The translations under genes and the position numbers were made by a program. From assembly GCF_964213995.1 (NCBI RefSeq), contig NC_135801.1, positions 106,764,001-106,828,000 on the forward strand: a stretch of DNA of 64,000 bases. The letters run 5' to 3'. The notes beneath the pieces are model-generated. The model was not told the origin of the DNA and made no database searches. It worked only from the letters and a program-made list of their open reading frames with translations. The DNA is from Mustelus asterias (lineage: Eukaryota). Positions 4,824 through 45,209 of this stretch are shown piece after piece; positions within the stretch are counted from its first letter, which is position 1, and each line of letters begins with the position of its first letter.

Positions 4824-6040
4824 TGTGACTTTAGTGTACCTTTAAGAAAGGTTTTTTTCAAAACAATCCTGTTCTCTGGAGTTATAAGCAGATCTTTTTC
4901 AGTTTGCTTTCATTGCTGCCAAGTTGTCTACAAGGGATTCTTTATTGCTACTTCAAAAACTCAAATGGGGTCTGTTTATTTTAACTCTGGATTGTTTTAC
5001 GATCCTGCATTGTTAGGAGGACGGTCATGTGTTTCTGGACAGTTTTTTATCCCTTTCCAGTGAGTTTAAGGTTTCATTTTCTGTTTGGCTGCAGTTAGAA
5101 TGGAGTTTTAGAAGGGGCAGCAAGCTGAAAAGAAGTCTCGCTCTCTCCCTGGTTTTGGAAATTCTACTGGTTAGGTGAAAGCTAGGTCTTGCCTTTCTGA
5201 AGAGGGGAATCGGCTGTTGGGGCTTGCCTAGAGGATCCCTGGTGTTTTGGGAAGCTGTTCTGACTTCAAACTGTTCTGAGTCTATCCAGAGAACTGCGGA
5301 CTACATCCAAATGACTCAATCCCAGTACCATGTGAGCATTACTCTTCACTGTATTAAACCTCTGAAAAGGGTCTTTTGTCTACGGGATTGGTTTGATTGG
5401 AACACAGTAGATATATCTGTTAAGGGTTATACATTATAGTGGTTGTTTTATTTCATGTTTGTAATTGATAAAAGTTCTTGTTAATTTTCTTACTATACAT
5501 GTTAACAAAATCTTTAAAAGTCTCTGTTTGATAAAAGCTCCCTAGTGAAATGGTTTGAGTTATAAGGAGAGGCTGGATAGATTGGGACTTTTTTCCCTGC
5601 AGCGCAGGAGGCTTGTCGATCTTATAGAGGTCTATAAAATAATGAGGGGCACAGATAAAGTAGATAGTCAACATCTTTTCCCAAAGGTAGGGGAGTCGGA
5701 AACTAGCTTTAAGGTGAGAGGGGAGAGTTACATAAGGGTCCAGAGGGGCACTTTTTTCACTCAGAGGGTGGTGAGTCTGGAATGAGCTGCCAGATGTAGT
5801 AGTAGAGGCGGGTACAATTTTGTCTTTTAAAAAGCATTTAGACAGTTACATGGGTAAGATGAGTATAGAGGGATATGGGCCAAATGTGGGCAATTGGGAC
5901 TAGCTTAGTGGTAAAAACTAGACGGCATGGACAAGTTGGGCCGAAAGGCTCAATGCTGTAAACCTCTATGACTCTAGTGAATCATTTGAATCACACCTGA
6001 AGTGAAACATATCATGCTTATCCTAACCAAATTCAAGATG
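4824..6040 (+). mobile_element. LTR-like repeat interrupted by a CR1 3' fragment
   Basis: Starts TGTGA..GTGTACCTTTAAGAAA, like the element starting at ~63041 (TGTGA..CTGTGCCTTTAAGAAA). Sequence resumes after the CR1 insert at the repeated TAGTGAA. Confidence 0.4.
5551..5975 (+). mobile_element. 5'-truncated CR1 3' end
   Basis: SYKERLDRLGLFSLQRRRL..DLIEVYKIMRG is the CR1 ORF2 C-terminus. Tail CTCTATGACTC. Flanking repeat TAGTGAA. Same subfamily as 40752-41289. Confidence 0.9.
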
Positions 6041-6047
6041 CAAAACT

Positions 6048-7127
6048 TACAGAAAGCAAAGAGTGGGGGTAAATGGGTGTTTTTCTGGTTGGCGATCAGT
6101 GACTAGTGGTGTGCCTCAGGGATCAGTATTGGGACCGCAATTGTTTACGATTTACATAGATGATTTGGAGTTGGGGACCAAGTGTAGTGTGTCAAAATTT
6201 GCAGATGACACTAAGATGGGTGGCAGAGCAAATTGTGCAGAGGACACTGAAAGTCTGCAAAGGGATATAGATAGTCTAAGTGAGTGGGTGAGGGTCTGGC
6301 AGATGGAGTACAATGTTGGTAAATGTGAGGTCATCCATTTTGGTAGGAATAACAGCAGAATGGACTATTGTTTAAATGGTAAAAAATTACAGCATGCTGC
6401 TGTGCAGAGGGACCTCGGTGTCCTTGTGCAGGAATCTCAAGGAGTTGGTTTGCAGGTGCAGCAGGTAATTAAGAAGGCAAATGGTATTTTGTCCTTCATT
6501 GCTAGAGGGATGGAGTTTAAAAACAGCGAGGTTATGTTGCAGCTGTATAAGGTGCTGGTGAAGCCACACCTGGAGTACTGTGTACAGTTTTGGTCTCCTT
6601 ACTTGAGAAAGGATATACTGGCACTGGAGGGGGTGCAGAGGAGATTCAGTAGGTTAATTCCAGAGTTGAGAGGGTTGGCTTATGAGGAGAGACTGAGTAG
6701 ACTGGGGCTATACTCATTGGAATTCAGAAGAATGAGAGATCTTACAGAAACATACAAGATTATGAAGGGAATAGATAAGATAGAAGCAGGGAAGTTGTTT
6801 CCACTGGCGGGTGAAACTAGAACTAGGGGGCATAGCCTCAAAATAAGGGGAAGCAGATTTAGGACTGAGTTGAGGAGGAACATCTTCACACAAAGGGTTG
6901 TGAATCTGTGGAATTCCCTGCCCAGTGAAGCAGTTGAGGATATCTCATTGAATGATTTAAGGCAAGGATAGATACATTTTTGAACAGTAAAGGAATTAAG
7001 GGTTATGGTGAGCGGGCGGGTAAGTGGAGCTGAGTCCATGAAAAGATCAGTCATGATCTTATTGAATGGCGGAACAGGCTCGAGGGGCCAGATGGCCTAC
7101 TCCTGCTCCTAGTTCTTATGTTCTTAT
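6048..7127 (+). mobile_element. Young 5'-truncated CR1 with open RT C-terminal frame (6063-6971)
   Basis: VTSGVPQGSVLGPQLFTIYIDDL...SKFADDTKMGG RT motifs, 302 aa uninterrupted, CR1 3' hairpin and TTCTTATGTTCTTAT tail. Confidence 0.95.
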
Positions 7128-24446: not shown

Positions 24447-25187
24447 TGGATATTGATCGTGGAGGATTCAGCAATAGTGATGCTGTTGAATGTTATGGGG
24501 AAATAGTTAAACTTGCTCTGTTATTGAAGGTGGTTTATGCCTGGCACTTGTATGGTGTGAATGTTATTTGCTACTTATCAGCACGAGCCTGAATGTTGTC
24601 CCAATCTTGCTGCACACGGACTGCTTCAGCATCTAAAGAGTCATGAACGGTACTGAACACTCGATGATCATCAGTGAACATCTCCACTTCTGATCTTGTG
24701 ATGGAGGGAAGCTATTGATGAAGCAACTGAAGATGGTTGAACCTAGGAAATTACCCTGAGAAACTCCTACAACGATGTCCTGAAGCTAAGATGATTGGCC
24801 TCCAACAACCACAACGATCTTTCTTTGTGCTAGGTATGACTCTAATCAGCGGAGATTCGAACAAACTTGGGATATAATTGACTATGGCAGGCCAAATTTA
24901 TTGTTCGTTTCAAATCACTGTAAGGCAACTGTGGATCTTCTCCTTAAACCACTCCGCAGTGTTTATCCCAATGATGCTCCTACCATGTTGATAGGTGGAA
25001 ATTCCAGATTGTTGACCCAATGACAGAGAAAGAACAGTGATTATATGTCCAAATAATTTAGATATCCTAAATGCTTATTTGCTGTGCTTTTGGAAAAGCA
25101 TCCAGACCATTGTGTTTGTTTATGAAAATTGCCAGCAACTAATTTTTTCAGTCGGATTCTGACCTATGTAATTTTCTTAATTTAAAG

Positions 25188-25823
25188 CGAGATCCATCAG
25201 GAGCAGTATCTGTAAAGGATGTTTTGGCTCGAGCTGCAGCAAAGGGACTACTAGAAGGAGTTGAGACACCTAGGATTCGAAAAAAGGAAGAAAAGCGAAA
25301 GAAAAGCAAAGTCTTTACACCAAAAATGGGGTCATTCAGTGGAGCCCAGTCAAGGATCACTGAATATTTAAATGAACAGAAAACAGCTACAGTTAATGGA
25401 ACCTCCACAGCCTCCCAGCAATTATCCAGAAGTGAAGCTAGTACAACTGGGTTGAGTATCAAATTACCTCAACGTGTGCCTATTCCTACCTTACCCAATA
25501 AAGTAAAGAGAAATACTAGCAATGTTTCTTCAGTGGGAAAGATTGCTAGTAGGAAAGGAAGTTCAACTGGAACAAAACAAGAGATGAAGTTGGTTTTAAA
25601 GCCCGTAGAGATGTTGCTTCCTCCAGTTACAATACGATACCTCAATTCAACTGGGGCTCAAAACCATGGTTATAGTCAACCCTACCTCTTCCAGTATCAC
25701 GGATTAACTAGTCAACCAGCATTCCCCTATTCACGTAATGCATTTGTGACTTCACTTGGTGTGAAAAAACAGAGAGATACAGGTATGTCTATTCCGCGCA
25801 AGCAACCACGTCCTTGGCTCTAA
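25188..25823 (+). CDS. NSUN7: Last coding exon of NSUN7 (NOP2/Sun RNA methyltransferase family member 7)
   Basis: Acceptor ttttcttaatttaaag|CGA. Translation RDPSGAVSVKDVLARAAAKGLLEGVE...KKEEKRKKSK...LKPVEMLLPPV...PRPWL* resembles the vertebrate NSUN7 C-terminus as recalled. It is convergent with APBB2, as in human. Confidence 0.88.
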   Translation, partial: RDPSGAVSVKDVLARAAAKGLLEGVETPRIRKKEEKRKKSKVFTPKMGSFSGAQSRITEYLNEQKTATVNGTSTASQQLSRSEASTTGLSIKLPQRVPIPTLPNKVKRNTSNVSSVGKIASRKGSSTGTKQEMKLVLKPVEMLLPPVTIRYLNSTGAQNHGYSQPYLFQYHGLTSQPAFPYSRNAFVTSLGVKKQRDTGMSIPRKQPRPWL

Positions 25824-31927: not shown

Positions 31928-32463
31928 TGTGCTTCCAGGATTGTTCCCATCCTGTCAGGGAACACTTCAGCAGTCAAGGGCATTCAGCCTCTGATCTTCG
32001 GGTAAGAGATCTCCAAAGTGGCCTTCATGACACATGACAATGCAGAGTCGCCCAGCGGAAACTGATAGCCAAGTTCCGCACACGAGGACGACCTCAACTG
32101 GGATCTTGGGTTCATGTCACACTACCTGTAACCCCCACAACTTGCCTGGGCTTGCAAAATCTTACTAACTGTCCTGGCTTGAGACAATTCACACCTCTTT
32201 AACCTGTGCTTAACCCTCCACTTGCATTGTCTGCATCTGTAAAGTCTTGATTACCTGTTAAGACTCACATTCCATCCGATGTCTTGTAATTGAGTCTGTG
32301 TCTATATATGCTTGTTTGTGAACACAACTCTCCACTCACCTGATGAAGGGGCAGCGCTCCAAAAGCTCATGCTACCAAATAAACCTGTTGGACTTTAACC
32401 TGGTGTTGTGAGACTTCTTACTGTGCCTACCCCAATCCAACGCTGGCATCTCCACACCATGAC
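31928..32463 (+). mobile_element. Penelope-like element 3' fragment (GIY-YIG C-terminus and pLTR with mutated hammerhead)
   Basis: Colinear with 56290-56689. CTGATGA-AGGGGCAGCGCTCC-AAAA at ~32340 has GAAA changed to AAAA. Confidence 0.8.
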
Positions 32464-38755: not shown

Positions 38756-38923
38756 TCATGGTGATTCAGATACTGGTCGCTTCTGTTTCAAAGTGTCAAT
38801 GAGAGACAAAACTCCACGTTTTACACTGGTTGTGACACGCCTTGTCACAGAGTCTGTTGGAGGACCAGAAGAGCACATCCTTGGAGGAGGAGGTCTGGCA
38901 ACTAAACACTTCTGATACCGAAG
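38756..38923 (-). CDS. APBB2: APBB2 terminal coding exon
   Basis: tttttctgtgcag|LRYQKCLVARPPPPRMCSSGPPTDSVTRRVTTSVKRGVLSLIDTLKQKRPVSESP* (TGA at 38756-38758). Matches the Fe65L1 C-terminus. Confidence 0.95.
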   Translation of the reverse strand, partial: LRYQKCLVARPPPPRMCSSGPPTDSVTRRVTTSVKRGVLSLIDTLKQKRPVSESP

Positions 38924-39748
38924 CTGCACAGAAAAAAGACATTAAATGAAATTAATCTCAAGATAATTAGCCAGAAAAGATGGAGGCTTCAGTGTAAACA
39001 GTTTACAACCATTAAATAATTTCTTTGAAAAATTAAATGTGCCTTGTTAAACTTTTCAATTTTAATCAGTTAGGAAACAGCATGGCTGAATCTACTCCAG
39101 AAATCTCAAGATGTCATGGACTAAGAGTTCTTGTCTCGCATGGAAATATTGCAGAAAATTGTCTCAGATACATACTTTTCAATGTTACGATCTTGCTAAT
39201 TACATTCAAACATATGAATTTAGAACAGGAGTAGGCCAATGCACTAAATACCGTTTGAGGCACAGAATGTCAAGCTGGGATTTTGGTGAATGAGAGATTT
39301 TAATGGTTAATGCTTCTCTAAAGTCAAATTTTTATTTACATTTAGCAATTAATTAAAATCACTGTTTAAAATTGTTAAAGTTAATAGGTAAGCTAAGTTT
39401 CTTTTAGGTTTAAACAGCGATATACAAACTCTCAGAGCAGCTGCAGCTAGTTAATTTGGGAGCTAGCTTAAACTGGTTTCTGAGCTTTAGCAGAGCTTGA
39501 CTCGTCCTTGCTTCTCAGCAAGGGATATCTGAGCATTGCTGGATCTACTGCATGTTGCTTGAGGCACTGTTTGTCAAGCTGAGCGTTTGGTGAGTGAGGG
39601 AGTTCAGTGAAAAGAGAAGAATAATTTTTTTTAAAAAAATGAACACAATAAAGATGGAACAGATGACTTGTCATGGCTGCAGCATGTGGGAGCTCCTGGA
39701 TGCTACTGCAATCCATTGCAACCACATCTGTAGCAAATGTCCGTGGCT

Positions 39749-40067
39749 CCGGCCTTTTGGCTAAGATCAAGTGTAGTATGGATCGCCTGCACTTGGTTGA
39801 GGTCATTAGGTTACACTGAAGCTTCATATGTTTCATATGAAGCAATTTTTAAAAGCGGCATCTCGGCCTTTTGGCTAAGATGCAAATGAGCCCAAGTCTT
39901 GGAGGAGGAACGTCCCCCTTCTCCAATCAGCTTGGCTCATGTAGATCAGGCCCAGGACAGGGTGGTTTGGTTACTTGCCCTGTCTTGTCAGCCTGGATCT
40001 GAAATGTCTCAACTTGTTGAGACTCTGAATTGGATTTGATTTGATTGAATTGGAAAAGTATTAAAAA
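39749..40067 (+). mobile_element. Retroposed insert with two U2 snRNA 5' segments, hairpins and an A-tail (candidate U2-derived SINE)
   Basis: 39750-39779 is identical to U2 nt 10-39 (CGGCCTTTTGGCTAAGATCAAGTGTAGTAT). 39861-39881 is identical to U2 nt 7-27. A-tail present. 14-bp TSD AAATGTC(C/T)GTGGCT at 39735-39748 and 40068-40081. Confidence 0.8.
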
Positions 40068-40751
40068 AAATGTCTGTGGCTTGAAGAGCTTTGGCTCAAT
40101 CAAGCTTCAGATATTGTAAAGGATCAGGGAGGGGCAAGTTACCTATGCACCTTGTTTCAGAAGGAAGTCACATCCCCTTAGGTTAGTGTTGTCTGCTTTG
40201 GTCAGTGGTCAGGGACAGGAGGGTGTATCTGTGAGACAGGCAGGTAAGGTGATTCAAAAGGTAGGTATGGAGGTGATTCAGAAGGTAGGTATGAAGGAGA
40301 TTCAGCCCTTTCAGTTGAGCAACAATTTCAAGGTTCTTGCAGCTTGTACGGACAACAGTGAGGGCTGTAGTGTGGATGAACATGGCACCATAGTACAGGA
40401 ATCCATCTGAGTGGGGGGCGTTAAAAAGAATGTCGTGGTAGTAGGGGACAGTATAGTCAAGAGGGTGGATACAGTTCTCCACAGCTGAGAGCAAGAATCC
40501 AGAAGGCTGTGTTGTATTCAAAGGTTGGGGACATCTGCTGAGGGGTGGAGGGGAACTTGCAGTGGGAAGGGAAGGATCTAGTTGTCATGATCCATGTAGA
40601 TACCACAACATCGGTCAGACTAGGAAAGAGGTCCTCCATAGGGAATATGAGGAGCTAGGCACTAAATGAACAAGCAGAATCTTAAAGATAGCAACCTTTT
40701 AGATTATTACCTGAGCCACGTGTAAATTGACATAGGGTAAAAGTGATTAGA

Positions 40752-41289
40752 GTCATAGAGGTGTACAGCATGGAAACAAGCCCTTCGGCCCAACTTGTCC
40801 ATGCTGTCCTTTTTTTTTAAACCCCTAAGCTAATCCCAATTGCCCGCATTTGGCCCATATCCCTCTATACCCATCTTACCCATGTATCTGTCTAAACGCT
40901 TTTTAAAAGACACAATTGTACCCGCCTCTACTACTACCTCTGGCAGCTTGTTCCAGACAATCACCACCCTGTGTGTGAAAAAATTGTCCCTCTGGACCCT
41001 TTTGTATCTCTCCCCTCTCACCTTAAATCTATGCCCTCTAGTTTTAGACTCCCCTACATTTGGGAAAATATATTGACTGTCTAGCTGATCTGTGCCCCTC
41101 ATTATTCTATAGACCTCTATAAGATCACCCCTCAGCCTTCTATGCTCCAGAGAAAAAAGTCCCAATCTATCCAGCCTCTCCTTATAACTCAAACCATCAA
41201 GTCCCGGTAGCATCCTAGTAAATCTTTTCTGCACTCTTTCTAGTTTAATAATATCCTTTCTATAATAGGGTGACCAGAACTGTACACAG
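40752..41289 (-). mobile_element. Young CR1 3' fragment nested in the older CR1
   Basis: CVQFWSPYYRKDIIKLERVQKRFTRMLPGL... is open to the natural stop. Same subfamily as 5551-5975. Confidence 0.92.
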
Positions 41290-44200
41290 TTAGAGATGAA
41301 TGAGATTAGAGAGATGAATGCGTGACTCAAAGATTGGTGTGGCAGAAATGGGTTCCAATTAGTGAGGCAATGGCACAGTACTGGGGAAAGTGGGAGCTGT
41401 ACCACTGTGATGGACTACACCTGAACCATGCTAGAATCAGTGTTCTTGTGAGTTGTATAATTAGCTAAGTAGAGGGCTTAAAACTAAATAGTTCGGGGGT
41501 CGGGGGGGGGGGGGGGGGGGGGGCGGTTGCGTGGAGGGATCATGTAGGGGCAGATTGAGTAAATGAAATTGAATAACAAGGAAGATCAAGGTAACAATTA
41601 AAATAATGATAATCTGAGTTTGACAGGAAGGGACTTGGATTGTAAACTGAAGAGTATGGCAGCTGATAGGGTCAGAGTTTACAAAAAAAACTAAATTAAG
41701 AGCTTTGTATCTAAATGCCCGCAGCATTCATAATAAAACAGATGAGTTCAAAGCTCAAATTGAAATTCATACATGTGAACTGATAGCCATTAGATCGCTA
41801 CAAGAAAAACAAAGCTGGGACCTCCATATCGAAGGAAGTTGAGACTTTAGGGAAGGACAGGAAGCTGGGGTAGTTCTGTTTGGCTGGAACTAAGTAACAG
41901 CAAAGAACAGAAAACATTGGCCAGAGTTGTTTATATACCAATAAACAGCAGTGGTAATGTAAATTACATTATAAATCATTAAATTAGAGGTGTGTATAAC
42001 AAGAGCAATACAGTAATCATGGGGCTTTCAATCTTCATATAAATTGGGTAAACATTATTGGTATTAATTTTGTGGAGGACACATTCTTGGAACGGATGTA
42101 AGATGGCTTTCTAGAACAGTACACATCGAGGAAGGGAATAGGGAATGGGTTATTCTAGATCTAGTATTGTGCACCGAGAAACACAATTATCTTATTGTAA
42201 AGGTACCTTTAGGAAAGGGTGACCATAATATGATAGAATTGAGAAACTAGGTCCTAAGTTTAAACAAACAAAACTATGAAGATTTGAGGGGCAAACTGGC
42301 TATGGTGGAATGAGAAACTACATTAAATGGGGCTCAAGTACTGATCCTTGGGCACCCCCACTAGTCACAGCCTGCCAACCTGAAAATAAGCCATTTATTC
42401 CTACTTTCTGTTTTTTCTCCGTTATCCAGTTCTCATTCTTTGTCATTATGATGGTGGACAGGAATGATTAACATTTAATAAACTAATACATCGTTTGCAA
42501 CAAAAATACATTCCTTTAATGCACAAAAGCCCAGAAAGTAGTGTTCCAAATGTGGTTAATGAAAGAAATCAAGGACTGTATAGGACCAAAGGAAGAGGGA
42601 ATTAAAGGAAGAGGGGCCCAAGAAAAGGTAAGCCTGAGAATTTGAAGCAAATGCTGCAAACAATGACAAAGAAAATATTAATAAAGGGAAAATAGAATAT
42701 GAGAGTAAACTAGCGACACACAAAAACAAAATGCAAAAGCTGCAAGTATGTAAAAAGGAAGAGATTAGCAAAACTAATTACAAAAAATTACAGAGTCAAG
42801 AGAATTTATAATAGGGAATTAGGAAACGGCAGAGAAACTACACAAATAGTTTTTGTCTGTCTTCACAGCGGAAAATACTAAAAACCTCCCAAAAAGCTGG
42901 AGAATCAAGAGAATAGCCTAAACAAGGAACTGCAAAATTACTATCAGTAAAAAATTGTACTAGAGAAATTAATGCGACTTAAAGTAGATAAAGCCACTGG
43001 ACCTGATGATCTACATCTCAGAGTGTTGAAAGAGATGGCTGCAGTGCGCTAGTGGTCATCATTCAAAATTCGCTAAACTCTGGAACAGAATAGCTCCTGC
43101 AGACTTGAAAATGGCAAATATGATCCCCCTAAATTTAAGGATATAGTGAAAAAACAGGGAACTACAGATCTGTTAGCCTGACATCAATAGTAGGGAAACT
43201 GCTCGAATCTATTATAAAGGATGCGATAAATGGACACTTAGACAATCATGGTCTGATTAGGCATAGACAGCATGGATTTATAAAAGGGAAATCATGTTTA
43301 ACAAATCTGTTGGGAGTTTTTAAGGATGTAACTAGCAGAATAGATAAGGGAGAACTGATGGATGTGGTATATTTAGATTTTCAGAATGCTTTTGAATAAG
43401 ATCCCAGATAAGGTTGGTAAGTAAAATTAGAGCATGTGGGATTGGGGGAAATATACTGGAAAAGAGTGAGAATTGATTAACGAACAGAAAACAGAAAGTA
43501 GGAATAAATGGTTCATTTTCAGGTTGGCAGGCTGTAACTAGTGAGAGGCTAAGTCAATGGGCAAAAATTTGGCAAATAGATTACAATGTGGAGAAATGTG
43601 AGGTTAGCCACTTTGGTTGGAAAAACAGAGATACAGAATTTTTCTTAAACGGTGAAAGGTTGGGAAGTGTTGAATGTCAAAGAGACATGGATGTTCTTAT
43701 TCATGAGTCACTGAAAGTTACCTTGCAGATACAGCAAGCAATTAAGACAAAGGTACGTTGGCCTTTATTACATGAGGAGTTGAGTATAAGAGTAAAGATG
43801 TCTTACTGCAACTATATAGAGCCTTGGTGAGACCACACTTTTTGTGAAGTTTTGGTCTCCTTACCCAATGAAATATATAATTGCCATAGAGGGAATGCGA
43901 CTAAGGTTCACCAAACTAATTCCTGGGATGGAGGAATTGTCCTATGAAGAAAGACTAAATAGACTGGACCTTTTCTTTCTGGGCTTTGGAAGAATGAGAG
44001 GACATCTTATTCAAACATACAAAATTCAAATAAGGCTTGACAAGCTAGATGCAGGAAGAATGACATTTTCTCTTGTTGGAGGTTCTAGAACCAGGGGGTG
44101 GAATCTCAGAATAAGGGGTAGGCCTTTTGGACTGAGATGAGAAGGAATTTCTTCACTCAGGGAGGATGGTGAATCTTTGAAATTCTGTGCCCATTGAGCA

Positions 44201-44623
44201 TGTTTAAGCTGAGATTGATGGATAGTGCAGGAAAATGGTGTTGAGGTAGAAGATCAACCATTAAGTCATTGAATGGTGGAGTGGGCTCAAAGGCCTATTC
44301 CTACTCTTATTTCTTTTGTCCTTACTCGACCTTTCGAGCCTTCTCTGCCATTCCATGGCTGATTGGAGTGTGGCTTAAACTCCACATTCTGCCTACCCCC
44401 AATAGCCTTTGGCTCCCTTGTTAGTCAAGAATCTATCTACATGTGCCTTACTGAGCCTGCTTCCACCATCAAAGGTTCACACTCAGAGAAAAGAAATGTC
44501 TTCTCATCTGTGTCATAAATGGGAGACCCCTTATTCTTAAACTGTGATTTAGAGGACATTGCAGCTTTTAAATATAGTTTAACAAGGTGCCCAATTATAG
44601 AATTCTCTTCAGACGATACGCAC

Positions 44624-44803
44624 CATGCATGCAGCCTGCACAGCCTCAGATACATTTCCTGCATTCGGTTCACACCAGAAGACGTGACACTCAAAACGTT
44701 GATTTCCTGTGTCCATAATAAAGGCAAAGGTATGGATATCTTTCCCCACTCCTATAAACGATAGGAAACGAACACGGCACTCCAACAAAACCTCATCTTC
44801 ATC
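44624..44803 (-). CDS. APBB2: APBB2 coding exon (PTB2 C-terminal half), 180 nt
   Basis: cag|[60 protein letters not shown]|gtgcgt; phase 0/0. Confidence 0.96.
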
Positions 44804-45209
44804 CTGCTCCAGGTGGGTGTAGAAAAATAAGAGCAACTGTTGTCATACAGATGACTGTAATGGGTTCATTTTTCTTAATTAATTTTAGACAAATGGAAAC
44901 ATTTTAGTAATGCATGAAATTAAAATTTGGACAATACAGATTTTAATCACCAACTAAAAGGTATGAGACACCAATTTAAAATTATTAACCACTCCAAAAG
45001 CCAGCGATCAGAGAATACCTTCAAATGTTGGTGGGAAAGTCTCTCCTTTGATGGCAGCATGGTATCTTTGTCCTCTTTGATATATCTTTTAAATTATTAT
45101 ATGCTATTTAAAATTTATTTCAACTATATAAAAAACTGACCAAATATTCCAAGGATGTTGCCGGAGAGAAAAGGAGGAATTCATTGACACAGAATCTTCC
45201 ATTACTCAC

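Follow-up and report, generated by a model that had tools for sequence, protein, structure and literature searches.

The SINEU retroposons of crocodilians (SINEU-1, -2 and -3; Kojima 2015, PMC4494074) are the closest described counterparts of the locus studied here. Double U2/U1 heads, derived from small nuclear RNAs (snRNAs), have been described for SINEU, and U2 or U1 heads are also present on some Tx1 LINEs of crocodilians. No internal promoter has been reported for snRNA genes, and the accessible text of the SINEU paper states the transcription of snRNA-headed retroposons as an open question (PMC4494074). The U2 sequence also harbors the insertion site of two LINEs, Keno of the Tx1 clade and Utopia, both of which encode a reverse transcriptase (RT) and an endonuclease. 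Their 3′ junction lies at U2 nucleotide (nt) 39, where the downstream U2 flank starts, so that the upstream piece would be nt 1-38 (PMC4640811; Keno via PMC6136364). Utopia generates either no target site duplication (TSD) or one of 20 bp, and no fish appears for it in Table 1 of PMC4640811.

Here we describe a 319-bp insert (39749-40067) in a 64-kb window, the window being the whole stretch of DNA that was analyzed. The insert resembles SINEU in its U2-derived head, its repeated heads, a length of less than 500 bp, its A-tail and its TSD; like SINEU it contains internal oligo-T, has no internal Pol III promoter and is presumed to be mobilized by Tx1 (PMC4494074). As presented in the accessible text of PMC4494074, SINEU is confined to crocodilians and prefers Mariner-N4 as its target, whereas the insert lies in a shark, within a LINE ORF1. 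Furthermore, both heads of the insert are predicted to pair in cis, as parts of a fold with a strong strand bias, a feature on which that text is silent. With head, tail, TSD and probable Tx1 dependence shared, but neither a crocodilian host nor a Mariner target, we do not file the insert as a member of SINEU.

Similarly, head 1 of the insert stops no more than one base from the Keno/Utopia site (PMC4640811; Keno via PMC6136364), but the insert contains neither an ORF nor an RT, its 3′ flank is the host LINE rather than U2, and it combines a 14-bp TSD with an A-tail, unlike Utopia. The upstream flank also aligns to LINE ORF1 copies. Compared with U2 snRNA (Rfam RF00004), the insert shares the exact sequence of nt 7-39 and an Sm-like site at nearly the same spacing. 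In contrast to U2, it is about 320 nt rather than about 190 nt long, has a second stem-loop I, has a branch-site region that is predicted to be paired in cis, shows no recognizable stem-loops III and IV, and reaches 28.6 bits (E 0.0017) against a gathering score of 46. No Rfam family exceeded its cut-off anywhere in the window. The insert is neither Keno nor Utopia, given the absent ORF and the wrong 3′ junction, nor is it a U2 gene.

The locus arose by one target-primed retroposition event and is a young retrocopy whose source was a short non-coding RNA assembled from U2 fragments. The original prediction had described an insert of about 319 bp bounded by a 14-bp TSD, and its extent, its coordinates and the 13/14 identity were borne out. 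The two TSD copies differ by a single C/T change and form the longest near-identical pair bracketing the insert; an identity of at least 13/14 was found in just 7 of the 12,791,037 position pairs spaced 250-450 bp apart in the window, the TSD of the insert among them. The A-run proposed for the insert end is present with 8 nt (40063-40070), but three of these lie inside the TSD, and the tail proper is correspondingly shorter (Table 1). A TSD starting with AAA is expected when an A-ended RNA primes on a T-rich nick, the mode of L1 and Tx1.

Removal of the insert and one TSD copy in silico yields an open frame, and the emptied flanks align across the junction to two other LINE ORF1 copies in the window, at 11004-10888 (75% over 119 nt, 2 gaps in total) and at 993-915 (71% over 79 nt, 0 gaps). 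At the protein level, the emptied flanks match the paralogous LINE at 20/33 residues without a gap. The two copies thus serve as paralogous empty sites, and taken with the TSD, the two U2 pieces and the A-run they establish one real insertion, as had been proposed for a single retroposition of a U2-headed non-coding RNA. The further proposal that excision restores a CR1 ORF1 frame holds for the open frame and the paralogous alignment. We provisionally assign the host LINE to the CR1 group; in Pfam, the one paralogous LINE frame that was searched gave no match.

Table 1. Features of the insert and its host site in window coordinates.
Feature	Position	Strand	Remarks
Left TSD	39735..39748	+	14 bp; chance rate counted across the window
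U2 head 1	39750..39779	+	U2 nt 10-39; spans the greater part of stem-loop I, the region that pairs with U6 and the bases that recognize the branch site (39773-39778)
Complementary arm	39787..39812	+	Predicted to pair with U2 nt 11-36 in cis: 15 Watson-Crick, 7 G-U, 0 A-C, 4 unpaired in two 2x2 loops
Perfect 10-bp hairpin	39821..39843	+	Predicted fold
Sm-like site, single-stranded (predicted)	39844..39851	+	AA, five U, then A where the consensus has G; corresponds to roughly nt 104-111 of U2
U2 head 2 region	39858..39883	+	Stem-loop I lengthened by three extra base pairs; 21/21 core at 39861-39881
Long hairpin D4	39886..39940	+	Predicted fold
Long hairpin D5	39942..40001	+	Predicted fold; weakly similar to D4
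Hairpin D6	40006..40023	+	18 nt; predicted fold
U/G/A-rich 3′ segment	40024..40062	+	Weak hairpin; relaxed Sm-like motif at 40033-40039
A-tail proper	40063..40067	+	5 nt; 8 nt counting the first three TSD bases
Right TSD	40068..40081	+	14 bp
Host decayed LINE ORF1 fragment	39647..40752	+	Matches copies at 11004-10078 and 993-748
APBB2 last intron	38924..44623	-	PID domain E 4.6e-7; APBB2 in PDB E 3.5e-36; GT and AG read directly

Head 1 is identical to human U2 nt 10-39 (30/30) and head 2 to human U2 nt 7-27 (21/21), compared by eye with the 5′ sequence of human U2 as given in S1 Fig of PMC4640811. Both exact matches had been noticed before, as had a spacing of about 110 bp; head 2 begins 111 bp after the start of head 1, and over the two heads 51/51 U2 bases are unchanged. 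The functional regions listed for head 1 in Table 1 are established for U2. U2 nt 1-9 are absent ahead of head 1, and U2 retro-fragments often end near nt 33-39 in any case. The suggested link to Keno and Utopia is compatible with the position at which head 1 stops, within one base of their site, but the head ends at nt 39 and not at nt 38 (PMC4640811).

On the plus strand, which is the U2-sense strand, the insert is predicted to fold at -134.9 kcal/mol, versus -100.5 kcal/mol on the minus strand. The plus-strand fold has a z value of -7.8, with 0/100 shuffles as stable, and separate shuffling with 40 sequences per strand gave z values of -11.3 on the plus and -6.3 on the minus strand; the two plus-strand values differ because of differing spread estimates. 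About 66% of the bases of the insert are paired in the predicted fold, which consists of six to seven hairpins, and of 203 tiles, each of 314 nt, a single one reaches a lower folding energy than the insert, namely a 350-bp DNA inverted repeat. In six stems, G-U pairs outnumber A-C mismatches by 12 to 2 (binomial p 0.013). U2 stem-loop I natively contributes one of each to this count, which is also somewhat biased, since the stem arms were delimited from the predicted fold and this favors G-U at helix ends. Two DNA inverted repeats of the window, used as a control, gave 6 G-U and 10 A-C. As far as the predicted stems go, such an excess of G-U suggests that selection has acted on the U2-sense RNA strand, and it speaks against the decay of DNA palindromes.

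The hairpin formed by head 1 and its complementary arm is predicted at -28.7 kcal/mol on the plus strand, to which it is confined, versus -11.4 kcal/mol on the minus strand. The arm departs from a perfect complement of head 1 at 11/26 positions, 7 of which are wobble-compatible, while the U2 side is unchanged (30/30). Among the branch-site-pairing bases of head 1, 4/6 are paired at a predicted probability of at least 0.95. Retaining U2 stem-loop I in place of the outer head-1 hairpin would cost just 5.8 kcal/mol and leave the 12-bp inner helix standing, so that masking can be predicted with less certainty for nt 11-22 than for nt 25-36. Since the U2 side is unchanged and the copy looks young (51/51 U2 bases, 13/14 TSD bases) while the arm has diverged, the arm must predate the insertion and have arisen in a source RNA to which a U2 head was already attached, or with which one was always transcribed. 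We thus consider it very probable that the insert was retrocopied from a U2-derived RNA whose structure had evolved beforehand. The original prediction was right about the single U2-headed retroposition, but missed the strand-specific structure that pairs both heads, the Sm-like site and the intronic position.

Several further parts of the insert invite comparison with U2. The Rfam alignment places the Sm-like site on the U2 Sm site, and the site is predicted to be unpaired and lies near the spacing found in U2; it lacks the 3′ G, and a motif of this kind occurs about once per kb by chance in the window. A 10/12 motif at the base of the 3′ arm recurs in hairpins D4 and D5, whose 5′ sides differ from each other yet keep pairing. 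The likeness between the two hairpins is marginal, its score being reached by 136/5000 and 102/5000 shuffles (p about 0.02-0.03), and they are possibly an old internal duplication. The 3′ arm of D5 and the next bases (39980-40008) match U2 nt 40-70 in 22/31 columns by eye, a likeness that is not significant, as its plus-strand score was reached by 888/5000 (EMBOSS-type scores) and 347/5000 (HOXD70) composition-matched shuffles; Rfam detected no U2 in a sub-window covering this segment. The hairpin and the relaxed Sm motif that follow the segment sit where U2 has its own, and D6 would take the position of U2 stem-loop IIb if the likeness were real. The insert contains three T-runs of 4 or more, and a scan of it for the U2B″/U1A-type loop motif came back empty. 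No plus-strand frame of at least 120 aa was found in the insert, and its two minus-strand frames had no Pfam match.

The reading that we prefer, at a probability of about 0.5, is that the insert is an off-target copy of a non-autonomous, Tx1-mobilized element whose master copies lie behind a U2 polymerase II promoter, probably inserted, most simply inside U2 genes, at the Keno/Utopia site. Each transcript would thereby begin with U2 nt 1-38. The element would have evolved a complementary arm that pairs with its obligatory U2 head, and an older second head would be locked as well. RNA masked in this way would be unable to pair with branch sites or U6 and would leave splicing undisturbed, and the Sm-like site may route it through snRNP maturation, into the cytoplasm and back. 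A Tx1-clade (Keno-like) ORF2 protein would then have used the short A-end for priming at a T-rich nick and thereby made a slightly 5′-truncated copy at an off-target site. Such a copy would lack an upstream promoter and would probably be inert except for antisense read-through within the APBB2 pre-mRNA.

Residence at the Keno/Utopia site would explain the invariant head that ends there, the arm that covers it and the repeated heads. Additionally, with internal promoters unreported for snRNA genes, a copy could act as a master only where an external promoter lies in front of it. Mobilization in trans by an L1/Tx1-type enzyme had been put forward originally, and of these the Tx1 type is the most plausible, since Tx1 is reported in the whale shark and in Callorhinchus, and no full L1 in the whale shark, in the accessible part of PMC8455134. 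Several observations count against the preferred reading: the copy does not lie in a U2 gene, the window holds no second copy, neither a master nor a partner LINE was seen, head 1 runs one base beyond the Keno/Utopia site in a range where U2 retro-fragments often end, the Sm-like site is of a kind common by chance and lacks its 3′ G, and the 3′ end resembles no LINE of the window. The likeness of the target to the Keno site is confined to a 5-mer located 5 nt inside the TSD and not at the nick (PMC4640811, accessible part).

If masters reside in U2 genes at the Keno site, the target gene would supply both promoter and head, which is a directly testable answer to the transcription question raised for SINEU, and the shark element would be a second independent origin of snRNA-headed elements, outside crocodilians. 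The heads are predicted to be masked by the RNA itself, which hints at how a transcript with splicing-active sequence could be tolerated. If a host gene is the source instead, vertebrates would have a new kind of U2-derived snRNA.

The alternative that survives best, which we regard as possible but on the unlikely side, takes the locus as a processed pseudogene of such a host gene, a cellular long U2-like snRNA of the Sm class that has its own PSE, gives an RNA of about 325 nt and is occasionally retroposed. Holding the U2 5′ domain in a long stem would make this RNA a regulated U2 variant or a double-stranded protein scaffold. The degree and strand bias of the predicted structure, the two heads unchanged from U2 and the single copy in the window are all consistent with it. 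Module 1, from head 1 to the Sm-like site, follows the order of U2, with head, stem, hairpin and an Sm-like site near the U2 spacing, but neither Sm-like motif is canonical and the U2B″/U1A-type loop motif is absent. Module 2, from head 2 onward, holds a possible colinear relic of U2 nt 40-105, but the shuffles and the Rfam search described above do not support its nt 40-70 portion. A double head, moreover, is a trait of retroposons in the accessible text of PMC4494074. Tailless snRNA retrocopies were reported only in therians and a lizard among the vertebrates examined in PMC5322556, whose accessible text does not list sharks, and this restriction suggests that casual snRNA retroposition may be rare outside these groups.

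In its fuller form, the snRNA reading would have cartilaginous fishes express an undescribed, abundant Sm-class snRNA of about 325 nt and two U2 modules, of which the locus is a processed pseudogene; we regard this as unlikely. The branch-site- and U6-pairing sequences of this snRNA would be identical to those of U2 but shut by a built-in antisense arm, as in a switchable or decoy U2, and it would possibly be a domesticated U2-resident retroelement.

An ordinary dispersed SINEU-like family of independent shark origin, with heads acquired by template switching, chance upstream promoters and no residence in U2 genes, seems improbable. The layout agrees with that of SINEU-1 subfamilies with sequential U2 additions, including A-tail, TSD and internal T-runs (PMC4494074), and the copy sits at a non-U2 site, but such a family by itself leaves the end of head 1 at the Keno site (PMC4640811) unexplained and gives no account of how a complementary arm would be selected against an invariant U2 head in promoterless dispersed copies. 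No comparable structure is mentioned in the accessible text of the SINEU paper (PMC4494074).

The original prediction had allowed for a one-off template switch, an escape that the RNA structure weakens while opening the third reading of a cellular U2-like snRNA. A one-off chimera, in which RT would have switched templates among U2 fragments and a further RNA and made the arm by folding back during insertion, is highly improbable: the window holds a single copy and U2-headed chimeric retrocopies are known in mammals (PMC4494074, accessible text), but a fold-back arm would be a near-perfect complement whereas here 11/26 positions differ and favor G-U over A-C, the heads and the TSD are near-unchanged in contrast to the arm, and the non-U2 body itself is all hairpins.

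Other candidates were tried and rejected. For scaRNA, snoRNA and miRNA readings all Rfam scores fell far below the cut-offs; the H/ACA scaRNA SCARNA21 reached 17.7 bits versus 60 (E 0.06), in an alignment without ACA at the box position. A tRNA-type SINE was dismissed as a scan of the insert found no A or B box and ARAGORN found no tRNA. A ribozyme leader was dismissed likewise, as our own HDV-like/hammerhead descriptor gave 0 matches on either strand and Rfam gave none. Utopia was rejected as the mobilizer on the TSD geometry, the A-tail and the absence of fish among the Utopia hosts in the accessible part of PMC4640811. Short AT-rich words at 40040-40065 are shared by eye with the low-complexity 3′ ends of Utopia from sea turtle and bat star (S1 Fig of PMC4640811).

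No second copy of the insert was found in the remaining 63.7 kb of the window by blastn, by nhmmer with seven sub-queries (best E 1.8) or by Rfam, and the other short repeats of the window occur in 3-5 copies. Phage and plasmid collections gave no match either, nor did bacterial and archaeal genomes for one 23-nt pattern, but such collections contain no shark DNA and these negatives are uninformative. With 64 kb of sequence, no family can be excluded unless it is very abundant; the insert is a candidate member of a SINE family. The 3′ end of the insert shows no likeness to any LINE in the window. Among the matches listed in a search of the open literature, with subscription papers, Repbase and Dfam outside its scope, there was no shark U2-headed element and no long U2-like snRNA. 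The accessible parts of PMC11979771, PMC10787021, PMC5381603, PMC5786205, bioRxiv 858944 and bioRxiv 2020.01.24.917260 contain nothing on a shark U2-headed element. With both U2 pieces folded into hairpins, the insert suggests a mobile element or small RNA of U2 origin that is as yet undescribed. An account of vertebrate U2-like snRNAs of greater length, with an extended stem, may exist, but none appeared among the matches listed, and no conclusion here depends on one.

The host site lies in the last intron of APBB2, a gene on the minus strand; of its last two coding exons, which flank the intron, one ends at 44624 and the other begins at 38923, leaving an intron of 5.7 kb. The insert is antisense to APBB2, about 810 nt from the 3′ splice site, and is nested in the decayed LINE. 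The protein of the last coding exon of NSUN7 (25143-25823, plus strand) is 99% identical to that of Mustelus asterias and 83-90% identical to those of the other sharks listed, which identifies the host as a shark. NSUN7 and the last two coding exons of APBB2 (38759-44842, minus strand) face each other tail to tail.

In antisense, as part of the APBB2 pre-mRNA, the insert presents 30 nt (39750-39779, minus strand) that are perfectly complementary to the 5′ end of U2; the last 3′ splice site lies about 830 nt further downstream. Judged from the sequence, this complement could bind U2 snRNP; no pyrimidine tract follows it by eye, and a cryptic splice site therefore seems unlikely. The target region (39726-39748) resembles U2 around the Keno/Utopia site in a 6-mer (39726-39731) and in a 5-mer inside the right TSD, neither of which is at the nick. 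Inside the host LINE ORF1, a 24-bp unit is repeated 2.5 times (40246-40305).

Elsewhere in the window there are two head-to-head, near-perfect DNA inverted repeats, one consisting of 55924-56273 and 56278-56627 (350 bp, 94%) and the other of 57635-57736 and 57738-57839 (102 bp, 96%), and related copies lie at 31936-32421 and 55754-55851. By their appearance they may be inverted Penelope-type termini. Weak Rfam matches to mir-2066 and to a group II intron fall on these repeats and are probably due to chance. A weak match to the integrase core (Pfam rve, E 7e-5, below the cut-off) at 1586-1996 on the plus strand likely marks a decayed LTR element, and LINE RT fragments (RVT_1, E 7e-11) lie at 6027-6971 on the plus strand and at several other sites.
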